Position numbers and translations under genes: made by a program
Shown: positions 3,358 to 10,385 of the stretch, piece by piece
How positions within the stretch are numbered: the first letter of the stretch is position 1
How the letters are laid out: every line of letters starts with the position of its first letter
Source: Escherichia phage Mu
Strand: one strand, 5' to 3'
DNA length: 36,717 bases
Sequence record: NC_000929.1
Notes under the pieces: generated by a model
The model's database searches: none
Seen by the model: only the letters and a program-made list of their open reading frames with translations
Told to the model about the DNA's origin: nothing

Positions 3358-4296
3358 ATGAATATTTCCGATATTCGCGCAGGACTGCGCACGCTTGTAG
3401 AAAATGAAGAAACCACCTTTAAACAAATTGCTCTTGAGAGCGGGCTTTCTACCGGAACTATCAGTAGTTTTATCAATGATAAGTACAACGGGGATAACGA
3501 GCGTGTTTCACAAATGCTGCAACGCTGGCTGGAAAAATATCATGCAGTGGCAGAACTACCTGAACCGCCCCGCTTTGTGGAAACGCAGACGGTAAAACAA
3601 ATCTGGACAAGTATGCGTTTTGCCAGCCTGACTGAAAGTATTGCTGTTGTATGTGGCAATCCTGGTGTGGGCAAAACCGAAGCGGCCCGTGAATATCGCC
3701 GCACCAATAACAATGTCTGGATGATCACCATTACGCCATCCTGTGCCAGCGTTCTGGAATGTCTTACTGAACTGGCGTTTGAGCTGGGAATGAATGACGC
3801 ACCACGCCGTAAAGGGCCGCTCTCCCGCGCCCTGCGACGTCGCCTTGAAGGTACACAGGGGCTGGTTATCATCGACGAAGCTGATCATCTTGGTGCCGAA
3901 GTTCTGGAAGAACTCCGCCTGTTACAGGAATCAACCCGTATTGGCCTTGTGCTGATGGGAAATCACCGGGTTTATTCAAATATGACGGGGGGTAACAGAA
4001 CGGTTGAATTTGCCCGTCTGTTTTCCCGTATTGCAAAGCGCACTGCAATTAATAAAACCAAAAAAGCCGATGTAAAAGCTATTGCGGATGCCTGGCAGAT
4101 TAACGGCGAAAAAGAACTGGAGTTATTACAGCAGATTGCGCAGAAACCAGGTGCGCTTCGCATTCTGAATCATTCACTTCGCCTTGCAGCCATGACGGCT
4201 CACGGTAAAGGTGAGCGTGTTAACGAAGATTATCTGCGTCAGGCTTTCCGTGAATTAGACCTGGACGTTGATATTTCAACGCTGCTGCGTAATTAA
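3358..4296 (+). CDS. B: MuB, ATP-dependent target DNA activator (312 aa)
   Basis: 312-aa ORF with a Walker A motif (GNPGVGKTEA) and Walker B-like IIDEADHL; follows A as in Mu. Confidence 0.95.
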   Translation: MNISDIRAGLRTLVENEETTFKQIALESGLSTGTISSFINDKYNGDNERVSQMLQRWLEKYHAVAELPEPPRFVETQTVKQIWTSMRFASLTESIAVVCGNPGVGKTEAAREYRRTNNNVWMITITPSCASVLECLTELAFELGMNDAPRRKGPLSRALRRRLEGTQGLVIIDEADHLGAEVLEELRLLQESTRIGLVLMGNHRVYSNMTGGNRTVEFARLFSRIAKRTAINKTKKADVKAIADAWQINGEKELELLQQIAQKPGALRILNHSLRLAAMTAHGKGERVNEDYLRQAFRELDLDVDISTLLRN

Positions 4297-4311
4297 GAAG
4301 GAGAAGAAATT

Positions 4312-4539
4312 ATGATGGCCCGAAATATAAAAATGGCAACGGATGCGCAGAACTGGTTACAGGCGCGCGGGAGTCATGTAAATGAATCATATCTCGGCGT
4401 GGCGCGTCCGATTCTTGAAATCACTTACCCACCGGTGGAACTGGTAAAAAACGCGGTCAGAATTATGGAGCATAAGTCCGGGGTGGCCCGTTCTGTATGG
4501 ACGGCCCGTCTTAATGGTTGCCAGATTATCTGGAGATAA
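4312..4539 (+). CDS. kil: Small early protein, probably Kil (host-killing/cell-division inhibitor)
   Basis: 75-aa ORF directly after B with an AAGGAG RBS; position and size fit Mu kil (~74 aa). Naming rests on position and size only. Confidence 0.6.
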
Positions 4540-4541
4540 CG

Positions 4542-4772
4542 ATGTGTATTAAAGCTGAAAAATATATTGAATGGGTTAAACACTGTCAGTGCCACGGGGT
4601 GCCGCTGACGACATATAAATGCCCCGGATGTGGTGAACAGATTATGACGCAATGCTCACCCGAAAAGGAAATTCGGGATTCCCTGACATGTTGTCCGTGG
4701 TGCAGCGCAGTTTTCTTTAAACAGGTAAAAGGCGCGAAGGTAAAAGCCAGCGCGGTTATTCAGAATCAATAA
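4542..4772 (+). CDS. Early small Cys-rich protein (putative zinc-ribbon), function unknown
   Basis: ATG at 4542 follows the kil stop (TAA 4537-4539) with a GGAGA RBS; the product contains C-x-C ... CPGC ... CC-x2-C. The ORF-track start at 4518 overlaps kil and is less likely. Confidence 0.65.
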   Translation: MCIKAEKYIEWVKHCQCHGVPLTTYKCPGCGEQIMTQCSPEKEIRDSLTCCPWCSAVFFKQVKGAKVKASAVIQNQ

Positions 4773-4783
4773 GGTGAAACAAA

Positions 4784-5047
4784 ATGGCAAAAGTAATTAT
4801 TGAAATTAAAAATACAGTATCTGGAATTAAAGGACGGAATTTGCGCACCAGCATTGCGGTGGACGGTAGTGCGGAACTGGACGGTGATGAGGGTACACTT
4901 GCTGGCATGGTGGCGTTACTGGTGCTTAATAAAAGCCAGAAAATAATTAATGAGTCAGCCCATGAAGCTATTGAGATTTTGAAAAACGATGGTGTCATCA
5001 CCAGTGGTCGTGTCACTGAAATGGCTGTTGAAAAAACATGTCACTGA
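4784..5047 (+). CDS. Early hypothetical protein (87 aa)
   Basis: ORF with an AAGGTGA RBS, tightly packed in the early operon; no recognisable domain. Confidence 0.6.
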   Translation: MAKVIIEIKNTVSGIKGRNLRTSIAVDGSAELDGDEGTLAGMVALLVLNKSQKIINESAHEAIEILKNDGVITSGRVTEMAVEKTCH

Positions 5048-5061
5048 AAGGAACGCTGACA

Positions 5062-5481
5062 ATGAATGTCAAAATCCGAAATGAAATTCAGGCATTAATC
5101 CGAATTCAGGAACGCAATAACAACGGTGGTGAATTACGCGAGTTTATTTGTGCGCGTGAAGTTGATGGCTATGGTGAAAAAACTTACCTGATTACTTTCG
5201 ACCATTACAGCATCTGTGCGCGTTATTGCGGCGAAAGCATATCCCGCGCCATTGCGTCTGGCGATGCGTTTAACGTGGATTTATGGGAGTACGTCATGGA
5301 CCGGGAATACATCTGCGCATCAGACCCTGAAGCCCGTGAAATGTGGCAGCGTATCTGGCGCGATTACCGGTTAATGGCAAAAGGCTGGGCGCGCTGCTGT
5401 TATTCCTCGCTTGCCCTGAAAGCGGTTCAGTTATCGCTGCGGCATATTCCGGCATCACTGCGCGAGCCTCTGCTGTACTGA
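5062..5481 (+). CDS. Early hypothetical protein (139 aa; alternative start 5038)
   Basis: In-frame ATG at 5062 preceded by AAGGAAC; the ORF-track start at 5038 overlaps the previous gene. Confidence 0.6.
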   Translation: MNVKIRNEIQALIRIQERNNNGGELREFICAREVDGYGEKTYLITFDHYSICARYCGESISRAIASGDAFNVDLWEYVMDREYICASDPEAREMWQRIWRDYRLMAKGWARCCYSSLALKAVQLSLRHIPASLREPLLY

Positions 5482-5493
5482 ATGGTGACTGAC

Positions 5494-5781
5494 ATGAAGT
5501 GTAATCGTAAGCGCTGGTCACGCGAAGACCGGGAATTTATCGAAGCCAACGTCGGGAAAATGACCGTTGAAGAAATGGCGGAAAAACTGAAAGTCGCCAC
5601 AACCGCCCTCCGGGCACATGCCAGAAGGCACGGAATATCATTGTGTGTATACCGAATCAGTGAACACGACAAATATTTATGTCGTGAACTTTATAAAGAA
5701 GGACTGGATATTCATGTTATTGCCCGAAAGATGGAATTAAGCAATCGAGCTGTATCCAGCATTGTATACAGCGGATATTAA
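5494..5781 (+). CDS. Early hypothetical protein with a helix-turn-helix-like segment (95 aa; alternative start 5482)
   Basis: ATG at 5494 preceded by GGTGA; the product contains MTVEEMAEKLKVATTALRAHARRHG, which looks HTH-like. Confidence 0.55.
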   Translation: MKCNRKRWSREDREFIEANVGKMTVEEMAEKLKVATTALRAHARRHGISLCVYRISEHDKYLCRELYKEGLDIHVIARKMELSNRAVSSIVYSGY

Positions 5782-5800
5782 TTAACAGGAGCTTTAATTT

Positions 5801-6325
5801 ATGGCTAAACCAGCAAAACGTATCAAGAGTGCCGCAGCGGCTTATGTGCCACAAAACCGCGATGCGGTGATTACCGATATTAAACGCATCGGGGATTTAC
5901 AGCGCGAAGCATCACGTCTGGAAACGGAAATGAATGATGCCATCGCGGAAATTACGGAGAAATTTGCGGCCCGGATTGCACCGATTAAAACCGATATTGA
6001 AACCCTTTCAAAAGGCGTTCAGGGATGGTGTGAAGCGAACCGCGACGAACTGACGAACGGCGGCAAAGTGAAGACGGCGAATCTTGTCACCGGTGATGTA
6101 TCGTGGCGGGTCCGTCCACCATCAGTAAGTATTCGTGGTATGGATGCAGTGATGGAAACGCTGGAGCGTCTTGGCCTGCAACGCTTTATTCGCACGAAGC
6201 AGGAAATCAACAAGGAAGCGATTTTACTGGAACCGAAAGCGGTCGCAGGCGTTGCCGGAATTACAGTTAAATCAGGCATTGAGGATTTTTCTATTATTCC
6301 ATTTGAACAGGAAGCCGGTATTTAA
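5801..6325 (+). CDS. gam: Gam, Ku-like DNA-end binding protein protecting linear DNA from host nuclease (174 aa)
   Basis: 174-aa ORF (MAKPAKRIKSAAAAYVPQNRDAVITDIKRIGD...) with an AGGAG RBS; recognised as Mu Gam. Confidence 0.9.
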   Translation: MAKPAKRIKSAAAAYVPQNRDAVITDIKRIGDLQREASRLETEMNDAIAEITEKFAARIAPIKTDIETLSKGVQGWCEANRDELTNGGKVKTANLVTGDVSWRVRPPSVSIRGMDAVMETLERLGLQRFIRTKQEINKEAILLEPKAVAGVAGITVKSGIEDFSIIPFEQEAGI

Positions 6326-6423
6326 TACCACCATTAATATTTAATTAATTCACATTCTTTTAATTATGGCGCGATACGTCAGGAGATTGCTCGCGCCTGA
6401 AACAGATTACTGAGGAATAAAAC

Positions 6424-6954
6424 ATGGTTGATGCAAAAATTCTGAATGGTGTCAGCACATTATTACGGGCTTACGGACGCCTGACCTGCGGAGTTCTGGC
6501 TGAAAAAATGAATATGCTGCCCTCGTCAATGGTGTATTTCCTGCGTGATGCGGTTGATGCCGGAGTGCTCACCGAATGCAACGGATTTTATGACGTTCCG
6601 CGCCCGCGTCCGACGCCGCCTGTAAGACGAAACGCAACTGAGCAGCCTGCTGTTGATGATGCGGTGTGGTGCAACTGGCGTCGCTCATTACCCTGGGTGG
6701 AAGGTAATACCATCCCCGCGCTGGCAAAAGAGTTTGCGACGGGCGTGCTGACCTGTGAGTCAGTCCACATTGTTGCTGAGGTGGATAACAGAATGTGCGA
6801 ACAGGGAATGCCCCGTTTTGTGATGGCTTATATCGATATCCGGCTGGGGCGTTTTATTTGCAGTTCAAGCGTCTGGAATATCACCGACCATGTACTGCGT
6901 TATCTCATTCTTGATTGTTCTCCGGCTCCCGCAGCGGTGCAGGAGGTGGCGTGA
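6424..6954 (+). CDS. Early hypothetical protein (176 aa), possible winged-helix N-terminus
   Basis: ORF with a GAGGA RBS; the N-terminus resembles a small DNA-binding fold; function unknown. Confidence 0.6.
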   Translation: MVDAKILNGVSTLLRAYGRLTCGVLAEKMNMLPSSMVYFLRDAVDAGVLTECNGFYDVPRPRPTPPVRRNATEQPAVDDAVWCNWRRSLPWVEGNTIPALAKEFATGVLTCESVHIVAEVDNRMCEQGMPRFVMAYIDIRLGRFICSSSVWNITDHVLRYLILDCSPAPAAVQEVA

Positions 6955-7484
6955 TGTTTTTTAAAACGTCAAATCCCGCAGCACTGCTGGCGTGGGACCA
7001 GTTTATGGCGGACTGTCTGAAACTACGCGAAGAAGCCCGCCATCTTGATAAGGTTCTGGGTTGTGGTTGCCGGTCAGTATTCAGCACAAGTATTGGTGGG
7101 CGTTATTTTCATGGTGTGAACTTTCCGGGGAATGAGCGCCCTTTCTCGCGGGAGCTGTGGACCGTACAACGGCCCGCATCAGGTAACAGTTGCAGGCCCA
7201 GAACTTCGCGGATACCTGCTCATCTCAGGGAGCAGGCAAGAGAGCTGGCGAAAATATGGCAGGAGAATATTCCGGTCACTTACGCCCGCACAGACGCTCT
7301 TTTACCCGCACTGGGACTGGATTTCAGCGCAACAATATTCGGGCCGCTCCAGTGGTTCCGTGTTGGTGATGTGATTTACGTCATGACGGGGATGACACCC
7401 GCGCAAGGCCGCATGACTGAAATCCTTTCTGACGAATTTATCCGGGCGCAAAAACAGGCGGAGGTAAACAATGGAAAACAATAA
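6954..7484 (+). CDS. Early hypothetical protein (176 aa)
   Basis: ATG at 6954 overlaps the previous stop (TGATG) and is preceded by AGGAGGTGG; the ORF-track start at 6915 is upstream in the same frame. Confidence 0.65.
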   Translation: MFFKTSNPAALLAWDQFMADCLKLREEARHLDKVLGCGCRSVFSTSIGGRYFHGVNFPGNERPFSRELWTVQRPASGNSCRPRTSRIPAHLREQARELAKIWQENIPVTYARTDALLPALGLDFSATIFGPLQWFRVGDVIYVMTGMTPAQGRMTEILSDEFIRAQKQAEVNNGKQ

Positions 7485-7653
7485 AACATCGTATTCGTGG
7501 CTGGGGAAATTCACCACGGTGAAACAGGAATGCCCGACCTGCGGTAATGAATCCCCTGAATATCTGAAAGAGTGCCCTCATTGTGGCGGGCTGAAATGCA
7601 ACCACTGCGATATGGGCGATGACACAGCGTGCATGAATTGTGAAGGTGAATAA
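7471..7653 (+). CDS. Early small Cys-rich protein (60 aa, putative zinc ribbon)
   Basis: GGAGGT RBS; product has CPTCG ... CPHCG ... C-x2-C ... C-x2-C, i.e. four CxxC pairs. Confidence 0.65.
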   Translation: MENNKTSYSWLGKFTTVKQECPTCGNESPEYLKECPHCGGLKCNHCDMGDDTACMNCEGE

Positions 7654-7654
7654 T

Positions 7655-7957
7655 ATGAATAATGAAACTAAATTTACTCCCCTTAATATTGATAACGTCA
7701 TGGCTGAAAAAGGGATGCTGGAACGTGTTCGCGCTATCGTTGAATATGGTATTAAGCATAATCTCACCGCCAGAGAAGTCCGTGACATTATCAACCGCGA
7801 AATGAATCGTCTGGAAACAGTAGTGGCACTGCAAAATGAAACAGCCCGCGAGGAGTACATCCGCCGCAGGCTGGGGCTATCAGACCAGGATATTGTTACT
7901 GACGCTCATGTGTTTGAGGCTTTTGAGATCCGTCAGCATCTGGGTCTAACGAACTGA
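7655..7957 (+). CDS. Early hypothetical protein (100 aa)
   Basis: ATG at 7655 immediately after the previous stop (TAA 7651-7653) with a GAAGGTGAA RBS; the ORF-track start at 7640 is a GTG. Confidence 0.6.
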   Translation: MNNETKFTPLNIDNVMAEKGMLERVRAIVEYGIKHNLTAREVRDIINREMNRLETVVALQNETAREEYIRRRLGLSDQDIVTDAHVFEAFEIRQHLGLTN

Positions 7958-8162
7958 TAATGTCTTCCATGATCTTTGACAGTTGCAGTTTTTCGCGGCG
8001 GCTTGTTCTCATTGCAGGCGCATCTTTTAAAATCTCTGCTGAAGAGCTGAAAATGGCTTTGCCCTCTTCTGCGGTGATGATCGCCTTCTTCACCAGAAGG
8101 CGCACCAGTGCTGATGCAATCGCATAACCTGCAACATCATAAGGTTGTACATTATTTTCCAT
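7896..8162 (-). CDS. Candidate antisense small ORF (88 aa), status uncertain
   Basis: Minus-strand ATG at 8162 is preceded on that strand by AGAGG with ~5-nt spacing. About 68 codons lie in the otherwise ORF-free 275-bp gap between the last early ORF and gemA; the 3' end overlaps the plus-strand gene. I do not recall an annotated gene here. Confidence 0.25.
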   Translation of the reverse strand: MENNVQPYDVAGYAIASALVRLLVKKAIITAEEGKAIFSSSAEILKDAPAMRTSRREKLQLSKIMEDIISSLDPDADGSQKPQTHERQ

Positions 8163-8232
8163 AAAATCCTCTCTGATTGATGTGTAAATTCAGGCGGTGT
8201 TGCAGCACCGCCCCCTTTCCGGAGGTACGATC

Positions 8233-8784
8233 ATGAGTCGCACATCCCTGATTAAATTAATCCATGTCGCCCGTCGGGAGCTACAACTCGACGACGACAC
8301 TTACCGCGCTTTTCTGATGCAGAAAACGGGCAAAATCAGTTGCCGCGAGCTGACGGTCACGCAACTGGAACAGGTGCTCGGTGCCATGAAAGAACGCGGC
8401 TTTAAGAAGCAGAATAAATACCCCCGTCGCCGCTTTAAGGGGCATGTCACGCCCCGTGAGAAGGTGTATAAAATCTGGCAGCAGATGGCAGAAGACGGTT
8501 TTATTACCGATGGCGGTGATGTGGCGCTGGATAAATATGTTCAGCGCCTGACCGCGAAACGCAACGGCGGACAGGGCGTTTCCACACTGGCGTGGTGTCA
8601 TGGCGACACGCTGCTGACAGTCCTCGAAACACTCAAGCAGTGGCACATCCGCTGTATTCGTGAAGCCTTTTCCCGTCACGGGCTTCCATTGCCGGTCAGT
8701 CCGTCCGGTCGTGAACTGCGCGGCTATGATGCCATGACGGCGGCTTATGCCCATGCCAGAAAGACACGGAGGATGGCACAATGA
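8233..8784 (+). CDS. gemA: GemA, early host-modulating protein (183 aa)
   Basis: ATG at 8233 preceded by GGAGG; product MSRTSLIKLIHVARRELQLDDDTYRAFLMQKTG...; position just upstream of mor as in Mu. The ORF-track start at 8197 is a GTG inside a hairpin. Confidence 0.8.
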   Translation: MSRTSLIKLIHVARRELQLDDDTYRAFLMQKTGKISCRELTVTQLEQVLGAMKERGFKKQNKYPRRRFKGHVTPREKVYKIWQQMAEDGFITDGGDVALDKYVQRLTAKRNGGQGVSTLAWCHGDTLLTVLETLKQWHIRCIREAFSRHGLPLPVSPSGRELRGYDAMTAAYAHARKTRRMAQ

Positions 8785-9170
8785 CGGAAGATTTATTTGG
8801 TGATTTGCAGGATGACACCATCCTGGCACATCTTGACAATCCCGCCGAGGATACGTCACGCTTTCCGGCACTGCTGGCGGAGCTGAACGATTTACTGCGC
8901 GGGGAATTGTCCCGGCTGGGTGTTGATCCTGCCCATTCACTGGAGATTGTTGTGGCTATCTGTAAGCATCTGGGCGGCGGTCAGGTCTACATTCCACGCG
9001 GTCAGGCTCTGGACTCGCTGATTCGGGATTTGCGTATCTGGAATGATTTTAACGGTCGCAACGTCAGCGAACTGACCACCCGTTATGGTGTCACTTTCAA
9101 TACGGTGTACAAAGCCATTCGCCGGATGCGACGGCTGAAATACCGCCAGTACCAGCCCTCACTTCTGTAA
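8781..9170 (+). CDS. mor: Mor, activator of the middle promoter (129 aa)
   Basis: 129-aa ORF overlapping the gemA stop; clear paralog of C at 9963 (shared ...GG-Q-YIP-G ... FNGRN--EL ... Y ... IY-I). Confidence 0.9.
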   Translation: MTEDLFGDLQDDTILAHLDNPAEDTSRFPALLAELNDLLRGELSRLGVDPAHSLEIVVAICKHLGGGQVYIPRGQALDSLIRDLRIWNDFNGRNVSELTTRYGVTFNTVYKAIRRMRRLKYRQYQPSLL

Positions 9171-9176
9171 ACAGTA

Positions 9177-9200
9177 AAGCCGGTTAATCCGGCTTTTTTT
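9177..9200 (+). terminator. Rho-independent terminator ending the early operon
   Basis: Stem AAGCCGG / CCGGCTT with loop TTAAT, followed by a run of seven T, 7 nt after the mor stop codon. Confidence 0.8.
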
Positions 9201-9247
9201 ACGTCCTCAATATCCTGTGATGAATAACCGTACCGGGGAAAATCATC
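9201..9247 (+). promoter_or_regulatory. Probable middle promoter Pm region (Mor-dependent)
   Basis: Placed by inference: it lies between the early terminator and the first middle-operon ORF, and Mor is known to activate a middle promoter driving C. The Mor site may extend upstream into the terminator. Exact -10/-35 not resolved. Confidence 0.35.
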
Positions 9248-9466
9248 ATGGGTAAAGGCTGGAATGCATCCTTTCATCTTGGCAGACGTGAGCGGCTGCG
9301 TCAGGAGGTTTTGCACCGTGTCGCCGGTGGGCCACGTCCTGCGCCCCGCGACTATACCGGTCATGATGGCACCCACGGCAGTTATTACATGAAAGGCTGG
9401 CAGTCAGTTGATATGCCGGAAATTCTTCATCATTGCCTGCTTTACAGGGAGAAACATTATGTCTGA
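9248..9466 (+). CDS. Middle-operon hypothetical protein (72 aa)
   Basis: ORF with GGGGAAAA upstream of the ATG; first ORF after the early terminator. Confidence 0.55.
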   Translation: MGKGWNASFHLGRRERLRQEVLHRVAGGPRPAPRDYTGHDGTHGSYYMKGWQSVDMPEILHHCLLYREKHYV

Positions 9467-9962: not shown

Positions 9963-10385
9963 ATGCAGCATGATTTATTTGAACACGATCCGGCAATTCG
10001 CCAGTTAATCGGACATATTGATAACATCCCGGCCCCGGAACTGGAATCACGCTGGCCCCGTTCGGTGGTTGATCTGATTGATGTTCTGGAAAACGAACTG
10101 AAACGCCAGAACGTCAGCAATCCCCGTGAACTTGCCCGTAAACAGGCCGTTGCCCTGTCCTGTTTTCTGGGTGGACGGCAGTTTTACATCCCCTGCGGCG
10201 ATACGATCCTGACCGCGTTACGCGACGATTTGCTTTACTGCCAGTTTAATGGTCGTAACATGGAAGAACTGCGTCGCCAGTACCGCCTGTCCCAGCCGCA
10301 GATCTACCAGATTATTGCCCGCCAGAGAAAGCTGCATACACGACGTCATCAGCCTGATCTGTTCTCACCTGAAACCCCAAAATAA
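9963..10385 (+). CDS. C: C, late transcription activator (140 aa)
   Basis: 140-aa ORF with GGGGGAAAA upstream; paralog of Mor; position before the lysis and morphogenesis genes. Confidence 0.9.
   Translation: MQHDLFEHDPAIRQLIGHIDNIPAPELESRWPRSVVDLIDVLENELKRQNVSNPRELARKQAVALSCFLGGRQFYIPCGDTILTALRDDLLYCQFNGRNMEELRRQYRLSQPQIYQIIARQRKLHTRRHQPDLFSPETPK

Follow-up and report, generated by a model that had tools for sequence, protein, structure and literature searches.

A general point of comparison for early phage genes that act on the host is the pL operon of phage lambda, whose early genes include gam, kil, ral and sieB. Phage Mu, the founding model of transposition, carries approximately nine early-operon genes that have been without an assigned function for >30 years. 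The region in question, termed the semi-essential (SE) region, is transcribed from Pe as the distal portion of a long early transcript (PMC3820752) and holds approximately 14 open reading frames (ORFs), few of which have a phenotype (PMC3325207). Deletion of the SE region from the replication-defective MuBam raised host viability after infection from approximately 20 to 100% and also restored the recovery of lysogens after MuBam infection (PMC3325207); according to published work, most of the host killing after infection is due to the region as a whole. As for individual products, expression of Mu kil results in spherical Escherichia coli cells (PMC3961180), and the Ku-like protein Gam of Mu attaches to the ends of double-stranded DNA and inhibits RecBCD (PMC3809393). 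Here, positions 4312–8232 of the 36,717-nucleotide (nt) Escherichia phage Mu sequence NC_000929.1 (the whole stretch that was analysed, hereafter called the window) were compared with related phages and prophages, with particular attention to the genes gp11, gp12 and gp13.

The left end of the window codes for the Mu repressor, Ner, transposase A and the B protein. The stretch 4312–8232 shares 99.6% nucleotide identity over its full length (3921 nt) with GenBank M64097.1 (‘Bacteriophage Mu left end’), is 93–97% identical to SfMu, D108, Mu_3F6, PhiR68_1 and several Yersinia Mu-like phages, and is 100% identical to the block in the prophage of E. coli W, LY180 and S17-1. It is therefore the classical SE early region of phage Mu, located between B (3358–4296) upstream and gemA (8233–8784) and mor (8781–9170) downstream, all on the (+) strand. 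The region as such was already known, being an annotated part of the best-studied transposable phage, and this identity removes it as a discovery. An earlier note, made from the sequence alone, had correctly recognized the SE early region of a transposable phage with its landmarks B, Gam, Kil and gemA. Its expectation of undescribed biology held for the functions of the genes; the genes themselves have been described and named for decades.

Comparison among relatives indicates how the genes of this region may be divided. We regard it as likely, with a probability of roughly 0.8, that the SE region of Mu is a mosaic in which a gp11–gp12–gp13 core acts on a conserved target and the surrounding cassettes are the home of host-range or anti-defence functions.

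A conserved core among exchangeable cassettes

In SfMu, D108, Mu_3F6, PhiR68_1 and the vB_YpM phages, the same order is found as in Mu, i.e. B-kil-small ORFs-gam-gp11-(gp12)-(gp13)-variable slot-gemA-mor. These relatives differ from Mu in carrying alternative alleles of gp6 and gp7. In addition, SfMu, YpM_3 and Tongde have an extra DUF5420 gene after gam, gp13–gp15 of PhiR68_1 are swapped for two unrelated genes encoding proteins of 222 and 113 residues, gp12 is absent from YpM_3 and Tongde, and D108 and Mu_3F6 contain a different reverse ORF. In SfMu, ORF6, ORF7 and ORF9 have been reported to be divergent and ORF11 and ORF14 to be additional genes (PMC4406740).

The comparison was extended to two divergent tiers of Mu-like prophages, comprising approximately 50 IMG/VR loci and a Citrobacter prophage. 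Relative to Mu, the B, GemA and Mor proteins of these tiers are 44–49, 41–48 and 26–32% identical, respectively, and Gam is 54–59% identical or replaced by DUF3164, whereas gp11 and gp12 retain 59–69 and 51–68% identity. The core of gp13 is 76–92% identical in divergent lineages whose B is 44–49% identical. Its proportion of nonsynonymous differences (pN) is 0.03–0.16, compared with a saturated synonymous value (pS) of 0.76–0.89 and with a pN of approximately 0.37 for B, against which the gp13 core stands at 0.03–0.04 at saturated pS; the dN/dS values of gp11 and gp12 are 0.13–0.30. As judged by these sequence comparisons, conservation is stronger in gp11, gp12 and gp13 than in the transposition protein B. 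Nearly all loci contain both gp11 and gp12, which are neighbours in those with inspected gene calls, and relatives of the two genes are found almost only in Mu-like contexts, the exceptions being two loci with 28–29% identity. In contrast to these genes, kil and gp6–gp9 are essentially undetectable in the divergent tiers, where isolated weak matches only were obtained.

These alignments show the SE block to be a mosaic of a conserved core and swappable or lineage-specific cassettes. The core consists of gam (or DUF3164 instead), gp11–gp12 and gp13, on which the substitution patterns reveal strong purifying selection across enterobacterial Mu-like prophages, and kil, gp6, gp7, gp8, gp9, gp14 and the reverse gp15 slot form the lineage-specific or swappable part. 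The comparison thereby ranks the genes without an assigned function: the constrained core of gp11, gp12 and gp13 is the part most likely to have one conserved molecular target, and the swappable cassettes gp6, gp7, gp14 and the gp15 slot are the better candidates for effects on host range, exclusion or counter-defence. The earlier note had proposed a host-takeover or anti-defence region. With regard to the evolutionary pattern, gp6, gp7, gp14 and the gp15 slot do resemble swappable accessory cassettes, whereas gp11, gp12 and gp13 are unlike the cargo of an arms race, and their slow evolution argues against inhibitors directed at one variable defence system.

The gp11–gp12–gp13 core and its possible role

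The gene gp13 (7471–7653, + strand) encodes an acidic, zinc-type mini-protein of 60 residues with the four CxxC pairs that the earlier note had seen, and overlaps the 3′ end of gp12 by 14 nt. All eight cysteines (C21, C24, C35, C38, C43, C46, C54 and C57) are invariant in 16 distinct homologues. Across these sequences, 23 of the 37 positions of the core (residues 21–57; consensus C..CGNE.PE.LKEC..CG..KC..CD.GDDT.C..C) are invariant. The free-standing form of gp13, with 46–60 residues, is confined to enterobacterial Mu-like prophages. Weak matches below the cut-offs were obtained with DnaJ_CXXCXGXG, DZR and Zn_Ribbon_1 of Pfam and with the N-terminal zinc finger of RadA, and gp13 may be regarded as a putative two-zinc protein. 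In loci L108–L111 (e.g. L110:3473–4165), a complete gp13 forms the C-terminal part of a 231-residue phrog_6418 protein, in which an N-terminal domain of 170 residues stands in the position of gp12 without being related to it; a comparison of gp12 with the domain fused to gp13 in L110 detected no similarity. Together with the 14-nt overlap of gp12 and gp13 in Mu, this fusion hints that gp13 works with the product of the gene directly upstream.

The gene gp11 (6424–6954, + strand) encodes a protein of 176 residues, comprising an N-terminal winged helix (residues 1–58), a linker and a Gp11_C alpha/beta domain (approximately residues 91–165), the last of which matches its family above threshold. 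In the predicted structure, the N-terminus is a three-helix bundle with a beta-hairpin wing that superposes on solved winged helix-turn-helix (wHTH) domains. On this predicted fold, gp11 is a winged-helix protein, in agreement with the HTH or winged-helix-like segment proposed for 6424–6954 in the earlier note. A Zalpha/Z-DNA-binding reading of gp11 was considered and rejected: Zalpha domains were the top fold matches, yet this is typical for a minimal wHTH, and the key Zalpha contact residues were not alignable by eye.

The start of gp12 (6954–7484, + strand) overlaps the stop of gp11 by 1 nt. Its product, a basic protein of 176 residues with an isoelectric point (pI) of 9.3, has a confidently predicted fold for which a fold search of the PDB returned no solved relative, pointing to a putatively novel fold. 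Relatives of gp12 were recovered from 70 IMG/VR loci and one Citrobacter locus, the latter being the single locus returned by a scan of GTDB species representatives, and the family is confined to Enterobacterales.

These features can be combined in a model in which gp11 would bind nucleic acid through its winged helix and, with the basic gp12 of novel fold and the two-zinc gp13, would constitute one early module whose members probably act together. The target of such a module would be a conserved one: a machine of the host for DNA transactions or housekeeping, or else the replicating DNA of Mu itself. The core would not behave like a fast-evolving inhibitor of one defence system, and functions in host range or anti-defence would more likely be found in the variable cassettes. 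Should gp13 prove to bind a protein of the host, it would rank among the smallest known phage effectors and might be of use as a tool in the manner of Mu Gam.

Several observations weigh against this model. Joint action of gp11, gp12 and gp13 is suggested by adjacency, overlaps and one fusion lineage only, and in divergent lineages gp13 lies approximately 0.9–2 kb downstream of gp12 rather than adjoining it. Also, gp12 is missing in vB_YpM_3 and Tongde though gp11 is present. The fold search with gp11 resolved only the winged helix and left the C-terminal domain unmatched, because the winged-helix matches swamped the search. Scans for promoters and terminators and an Rfam search across 4000–9400 yielded nothing above chance except the known terminator after mor, so that the operon structure rests on published work. 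High conservation is in itself compatible with anti-defence, as conservation would also be expected of a protein that inhibits a conserved sensor of the host. Finally, no function established by experiment was found in the literature for gp6–gp9 or gp11–gp15; searches by locus tags, accessions and Pfam/DUF names likewise returned no paper giving a function to any of them, which agrees with the earlier note in that only Gam and Kil have an assigned function.

It is possible, though in our judgement not probable, that gp9, gp11, gp12 and gp13 serve the DNA transactions or regulation of the phage itself, i.e. replicative transposition, the early-to-middle transition or DNA organization. The confident winged helix of gp11, the basic character of gp12 (pI 9.3) and the HTH-like, basic nature of gp9 (described below) are in keeping with such a role, as is the fact that gp11 and gp12 keep their place with B, GemA and Mor in every sampled Mu-like lineage. 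Classical genetics places the phenotypes ‘arm’ (amplified replication of Mu), ‘cim’, ‘sot’ and ‘lig’ in the SE region, and ‘arm’ would fit this reading. However, neither a DNA target nor a repeated site for binding was found, and two Yersinia Mu-like phages do without gp12.

Beta-clamp-binding motifs like those described in MuC and Mor were also considered as candidates and rejected for the SE region: such motifs are absent from all SE proteins and were found only in Mor and C. Mu C (9963–10385) has clamp-binding-like motifs at its N-terminus (QHDLF) and C-terminus (QPDLF), reported in 2026 for MuC, and Mor (8781–9170) has DLF at residue 4, a clamp-binding-like motif reported in 2026 for Mor.

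Gene content, variable genes and the anti-defence question

Between B and gemA, there are ten (+) ORFs and one antisense (−) gene, gp15. The ten tightly packed (+) ORFs have essentially the coordinates given in the earlier note, which overlooked gp15 at 7896–8162. That note had also described many overlapping start and stop codons, which is an overstatement: with the annotated starts, true overlaps occur in two pairs only, namely gp11/gp12 (1 nt) and gp12/gp13 (14 nt), and the remaining junctions are gaps of 1–19 nt and two large gaps of 98 nt (gam-gp11) and 275 nt (gp14-gemA). The region is already annotated as kil, gp6–gp9, gam and gp11–gp15, and the SE proteins are exact matches to UniProt GP7_BPMU, GP8_BPMU and GP11_BPMU to GP15_BPMU. 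In the 1991 record M64097, gp11 (6424–6962 in the record) is cut into three ORFs, E10, E11 and E12, and the reverse ORF is stretched to 134 residues, compared with 88 in the window; both differences look like old sequencing (frameshift) errors.

Antisense or alternative-frame ORFs of 80–220 residues are common in the Mu genome, and some of the small ORFs could in principle be chance open frames. This is very improbable. Substitutions relative to seven related phages, among them SfMu, D108 and Yersinia Mu-like phages, are mostly at third positions and synonymous in all ten (+) ORFs, each of which defines its own PHROG family (E < 1e-40), and several have homologues at 40–70% identity. By these coding signatures, all ten (+) ORFs are real genes, and spurious ORFs are essentially excluded among them and unlikely in the case of gp15, the evidence for which is given below.

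The gene kil (gp5; 4312–4539, + strand) encodes a basic host-killing protein of 75 residues (pI 10.2) and is so annotated in M64097. The assignment of Kil is borne out by a full-length match to phrog_2743 ‘Kil protein’ (E = 2.8e-43), and PF26843, present in newer Pfam releases, marks a kil homologue in related prophages. In close relatives, kil is 99–100% identical. The spherical shape of cells expressing Mu kil indicates that Kil interferes with elongation rather than septation, whatever its PHROG label (PMC3961180). A truncated 68-residue member of the Kil cluster is labelled ‘Protein cim’ in one source.

The gene gam (gp10; 5801–6325, + strand) encodes the 174-residue Ku-like double-strand DNA end binder and host nuclease inhibitor. 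Its assignment is likewise sound, with a match to PF07352 over residues 21–166 (E = 4e-42; 144.1 bits against a cut-off of 28.3) and to phrog_491 (E = 3e-74). According to a recent report, phages are sensitized to Gabija by end binders of the Mu Gam family (PMC12407980). No Gam is detectable in the Salmonella and Citrobacter Mu-like prophages L020, L021, L037–L041, L043–L044 and L089. In L020, the only one of these loci with gene calls inspected, a DUF3164 protein (L020:3611–4249) lies at the position of gam, and gp11, gp12, GemA and Mor are retained; this position suggests that DUF3164 is a functional alternative to Gam.

The spacer between gam and gp11 (6326–6423; 98 nt), unusually long for the SE operon, has an AT-rich run and, after it, a GC hairpin with a stem of 7 bp (GGCGCGA...TCGCGCC). 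It folds with a minimum free energy of −17.8 kcal/mol and a z-score of only −1.9, and its hairpin is thus modest; it matches no Rfam family and has no promoter or terminator consensus above chance. In the scan of the region, the z-scores of intergenic hairpins were unremarkable. The strong hairpin directly after mor (9176–9196), which has a T-run and resembles an intrinsic terminator, is consistent with where the early transcript of Mu is known to end.

Upstream of gam, gp6 (4542–4772, + strand) encodes a 76-residue zinc-ribbon-like protein (phrog_3786) that exists as two alleles. It contains nine cysteines and just two CxxC pairs, C27/C30 and C51/C54 (CPGC and CPWC), rather than the four claimed for it earlier, and its C15-x-C17-H18 (CxCH) motif is missing in the SfMu-type allele. 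Given the two pairs and the absence of CxCH from that allele, gp6 is a putative single two-knuckle zinc ribbon. The allele of SfMu, YpM_5 and PhiR68_1 is 78% identical and differs by 17 nonsynonymous versus 8–10 synonymous codon changes. Weak matches below the cut-offs were found to FmdB and the ECs_2282 zinc ribbon, and also to RpoP-like proteins. In the Mu prophage of E. coli W (L009 1100–1345), PGAP leaves gp6 unannotated despite the identical sequence, an example of the under-annotation of small genes.

The product of gp7 (4784–5047, + strand; 87 residues; phrog_10252, E = 8e-57) is cassette-like. In D108, YpM_5, Mu_3F6 and PhiR68_1, it is replaced by an 89-residue phrog_2230 protein, a very distant relative that has the N-terminus MAKVI.E..NT in common with it; Mu gp7 itself matches phrog_2230 at E = 0.009. 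An RraB-like (RNase E regulator) reading of the D108-type gp7 (L003:2973–3242) was rejected as too weak, the PF06877 match being below the cut-off (E = 0.0098), although it may serve as a lead. The gene gp8 (5062–5481, + strand; alternative ATG at 5038) encodes 139 residues (phrog_3690, E = 3e-95). Its homologues are confined to Enterobacterales, nearly all with at least 73% identity, its substitutions are dominated by third positions, and it has no match in PDB or Pfam.

The gene gp9 (5494–5781, + strand; alternative ATG at 5482) encodes a basic protein of 95 residues with two HTH-like segments. It matches phrog_323 ‘transcriptional regulator, D5-like’ (E = 5e-29) and gives ten Pfam and four NCBIfam matches to HTH or sigma-70 region 4 models, all below the cut-offs (best E = 8e-4). 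The HTH-like segments noted earlier are supported to that extent, i.e. by the phrog_323 match and the sub-cut-off Pfam matches only, and gp9 is probably a DNA-binding protein with two such segments. Many divergent Mu-like prophages of E. coli retain, at approximately 87% identity, a stretch of DNA at approximately 5515–6935 that includes part of gp9.

Downstream of the core, gp14 (7655–7957, + strand; phrog_6075, E = 3e-54) encodes a cassette-like protein of 100 residues, judged to be helical on reading of its sequence. The allele of D108 and Mu_3F6 is 37–38% identical, and SfMu and YpM_5 have an extra phrog_1988 gene upstream of gp14. The antisense gene gp15 (7896–8162, − strand; 88 residues; UniProt GP15_BPMU) overlaps the 3′ end of gp14 by 62 nt and lies within the 275-nt gap between gp14 and gemA. 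It is preceded by the Shine-Dalgarno sequence GAGAGGA, is annotated by PGAP in E. coli W and is mostly deleted in vB_YpM_3. The slot between gp14 and gemA is occupied by reverse genes of different families, namely gp15 (phrog_8747) in Mu, a 119-residue ORF (phrog_38610) in D108 and Mu_3F6 (L003:6094–6453, − strand) and a 138-residue ORF of an unrelated third family (phrog_585) in the IMG/VR locus L110 (4440–4856, − strand). Mu gp15 and the 119-residue ORF of D108 are unrelated at the DNA level, and both match the same core of phrog_32893 (E = 6e-4 and 5e-7, respectively). Direct comparison of the two by BLASTP and Smith-Waterman was not significant (p of approximately 0.06), so that their homology rests on this common match, which is also the best evidence that the antisense ORFs are genuine genes. 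A coding test on polymorphism in the non-overlapping part of gp15 had five sites available, at which the (−) frame and a (+) frame of 55 residues are indistinguishable as the two share third positions. Taken together with the Shine-Dalgarno sequence and the filling of the 275-nt gap, the common PHROG core argues against a chance frame in this case.

A GC-rich hairpin (GGCGGTGTTGCAGCACCGCC; 8193–8212, no strand assigned) with an 8-bp stem is located between the start of gp15 and that of gemA and is conserved in both Mu and D108 beside reverse-ORF cassettes that are otherwise unrelated. Because it is conserved beside an unrelated cassette in D108, this hairpin may be a recombination boundary or a regulatory or RNA-stability element.

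The gp14-gemA slot looks like an insertion site for morons antisense to the early operon. Expression of gp15 in the lysogen, as for a moron, is a speculation, given that no promoter consensus was found. A broader proposal, which we put forward tentatively and as a whole, would be that the two-zinc gp13 of approximately 40 residues and the translationally coupled gp11 and gp12 form an unrecognized early module binding a conserved host machine or immune sensor, and that the gp15 slot is a lysogen-expressed moron site with interchangeable host-benefit or exclusion genes. Binding to a highly conserved host machine or sensor would account for the several-fold slower evolution of the module relative to B.

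The variable genes bear on another possibility, that several of the genes without an assigned function encode dedicated anti-defence proteins acting on restriction, abortive infection, CBASS or other immunity. The SE region is expressed early, its name marks a partial need for growth, and it contains a genuine counter-nuclease in Gam. In gp6, nonsynonymous changes between alleles exceed synonymous ones, and gp7, gp14 and the gp15 slot are swapped for unrelated or very divergent genes among close relatives, as is typical of accessory or counter-defence loci; the small proteins, of which some are acidic, show no enzymatic domain. On the other hand, the rate of evolution of the best-conserved of them, gp11, gp12 and gp13, is lower than that of B, GemA and Mor, the literature yielded no phenotype, and there is no sequence similarity to solved structures, a set that includes many solved anti-defence proteins. 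Profile searches of every ORF against Pfam, NCBIfam and PADLOC, a check proposed in the earlier note, placed only Gam and Gp11_C above threshold, and sequence searches of the PDB with Kil, gp6, gp7, gp8, gp9, gp11, gp12, gp13 and gp14 gave nothing significant. Thus, none of the SE proteins without an assigned function matches a PADLOC model or a solved structure family by sequence, a result that is weak evidence either way because no library of anti-defence families was among the searched resources. Overall, a dedicated anti-defence role for several of these proteins appears rather doubtful, and the reading with a conserved-target core and cassettes as the place for host-range or anti-defence functions is preferred. 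The proposal of host takeover made in the earlier note is upheld at the level of the region by the SE deletion, the rounding of cells by Kil and the action of Gam against RecBCD (PMC3325207, PMC3961180, PMC3809393). Leads not found in the literature are the gp11–gp12–gp13 core, gp13 above all, the gp12 fold without a solved relative and the reverse-gene slot before gemA.

Comparison with zinc mini-fingers and the lambda early genes

With its four CxxC(G) motifs, spaced in a way compatible with two interleaved zinc sites, gp13 resembles the cysteine-rich region of DnaJ and other zinc-ribbon mini-fingers. It differs from them in that all matches are below threshold and that gp13 has neither a J-domain nor another partner domain. 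To the same mini-fingers, gp6 may be likened as a single two-knuckle ribbon, with its weak FmdB and RpoP-like matches.

As a system, the SE region may be compared with the lambda pL operon. Neither in sequence nor in mechanism are the early proteins of the two phages related: the Gam of lambda attaches to RecBCD itself and that of Mu to DNA ends (PMC3809393), and lambda Kil blocks FtsZ and gives rise to filaments, whereas Mu Kil gives rise to spherical cells (PMC3961180). Mu also has no identifiable counterpart of lambda Ral. The likeness lies in the arrangement, as both phages devote an early, largely dispensable region to small host-modulating proteins, including a Gam that antagonizes RecBCD and a Kil that kills the host.

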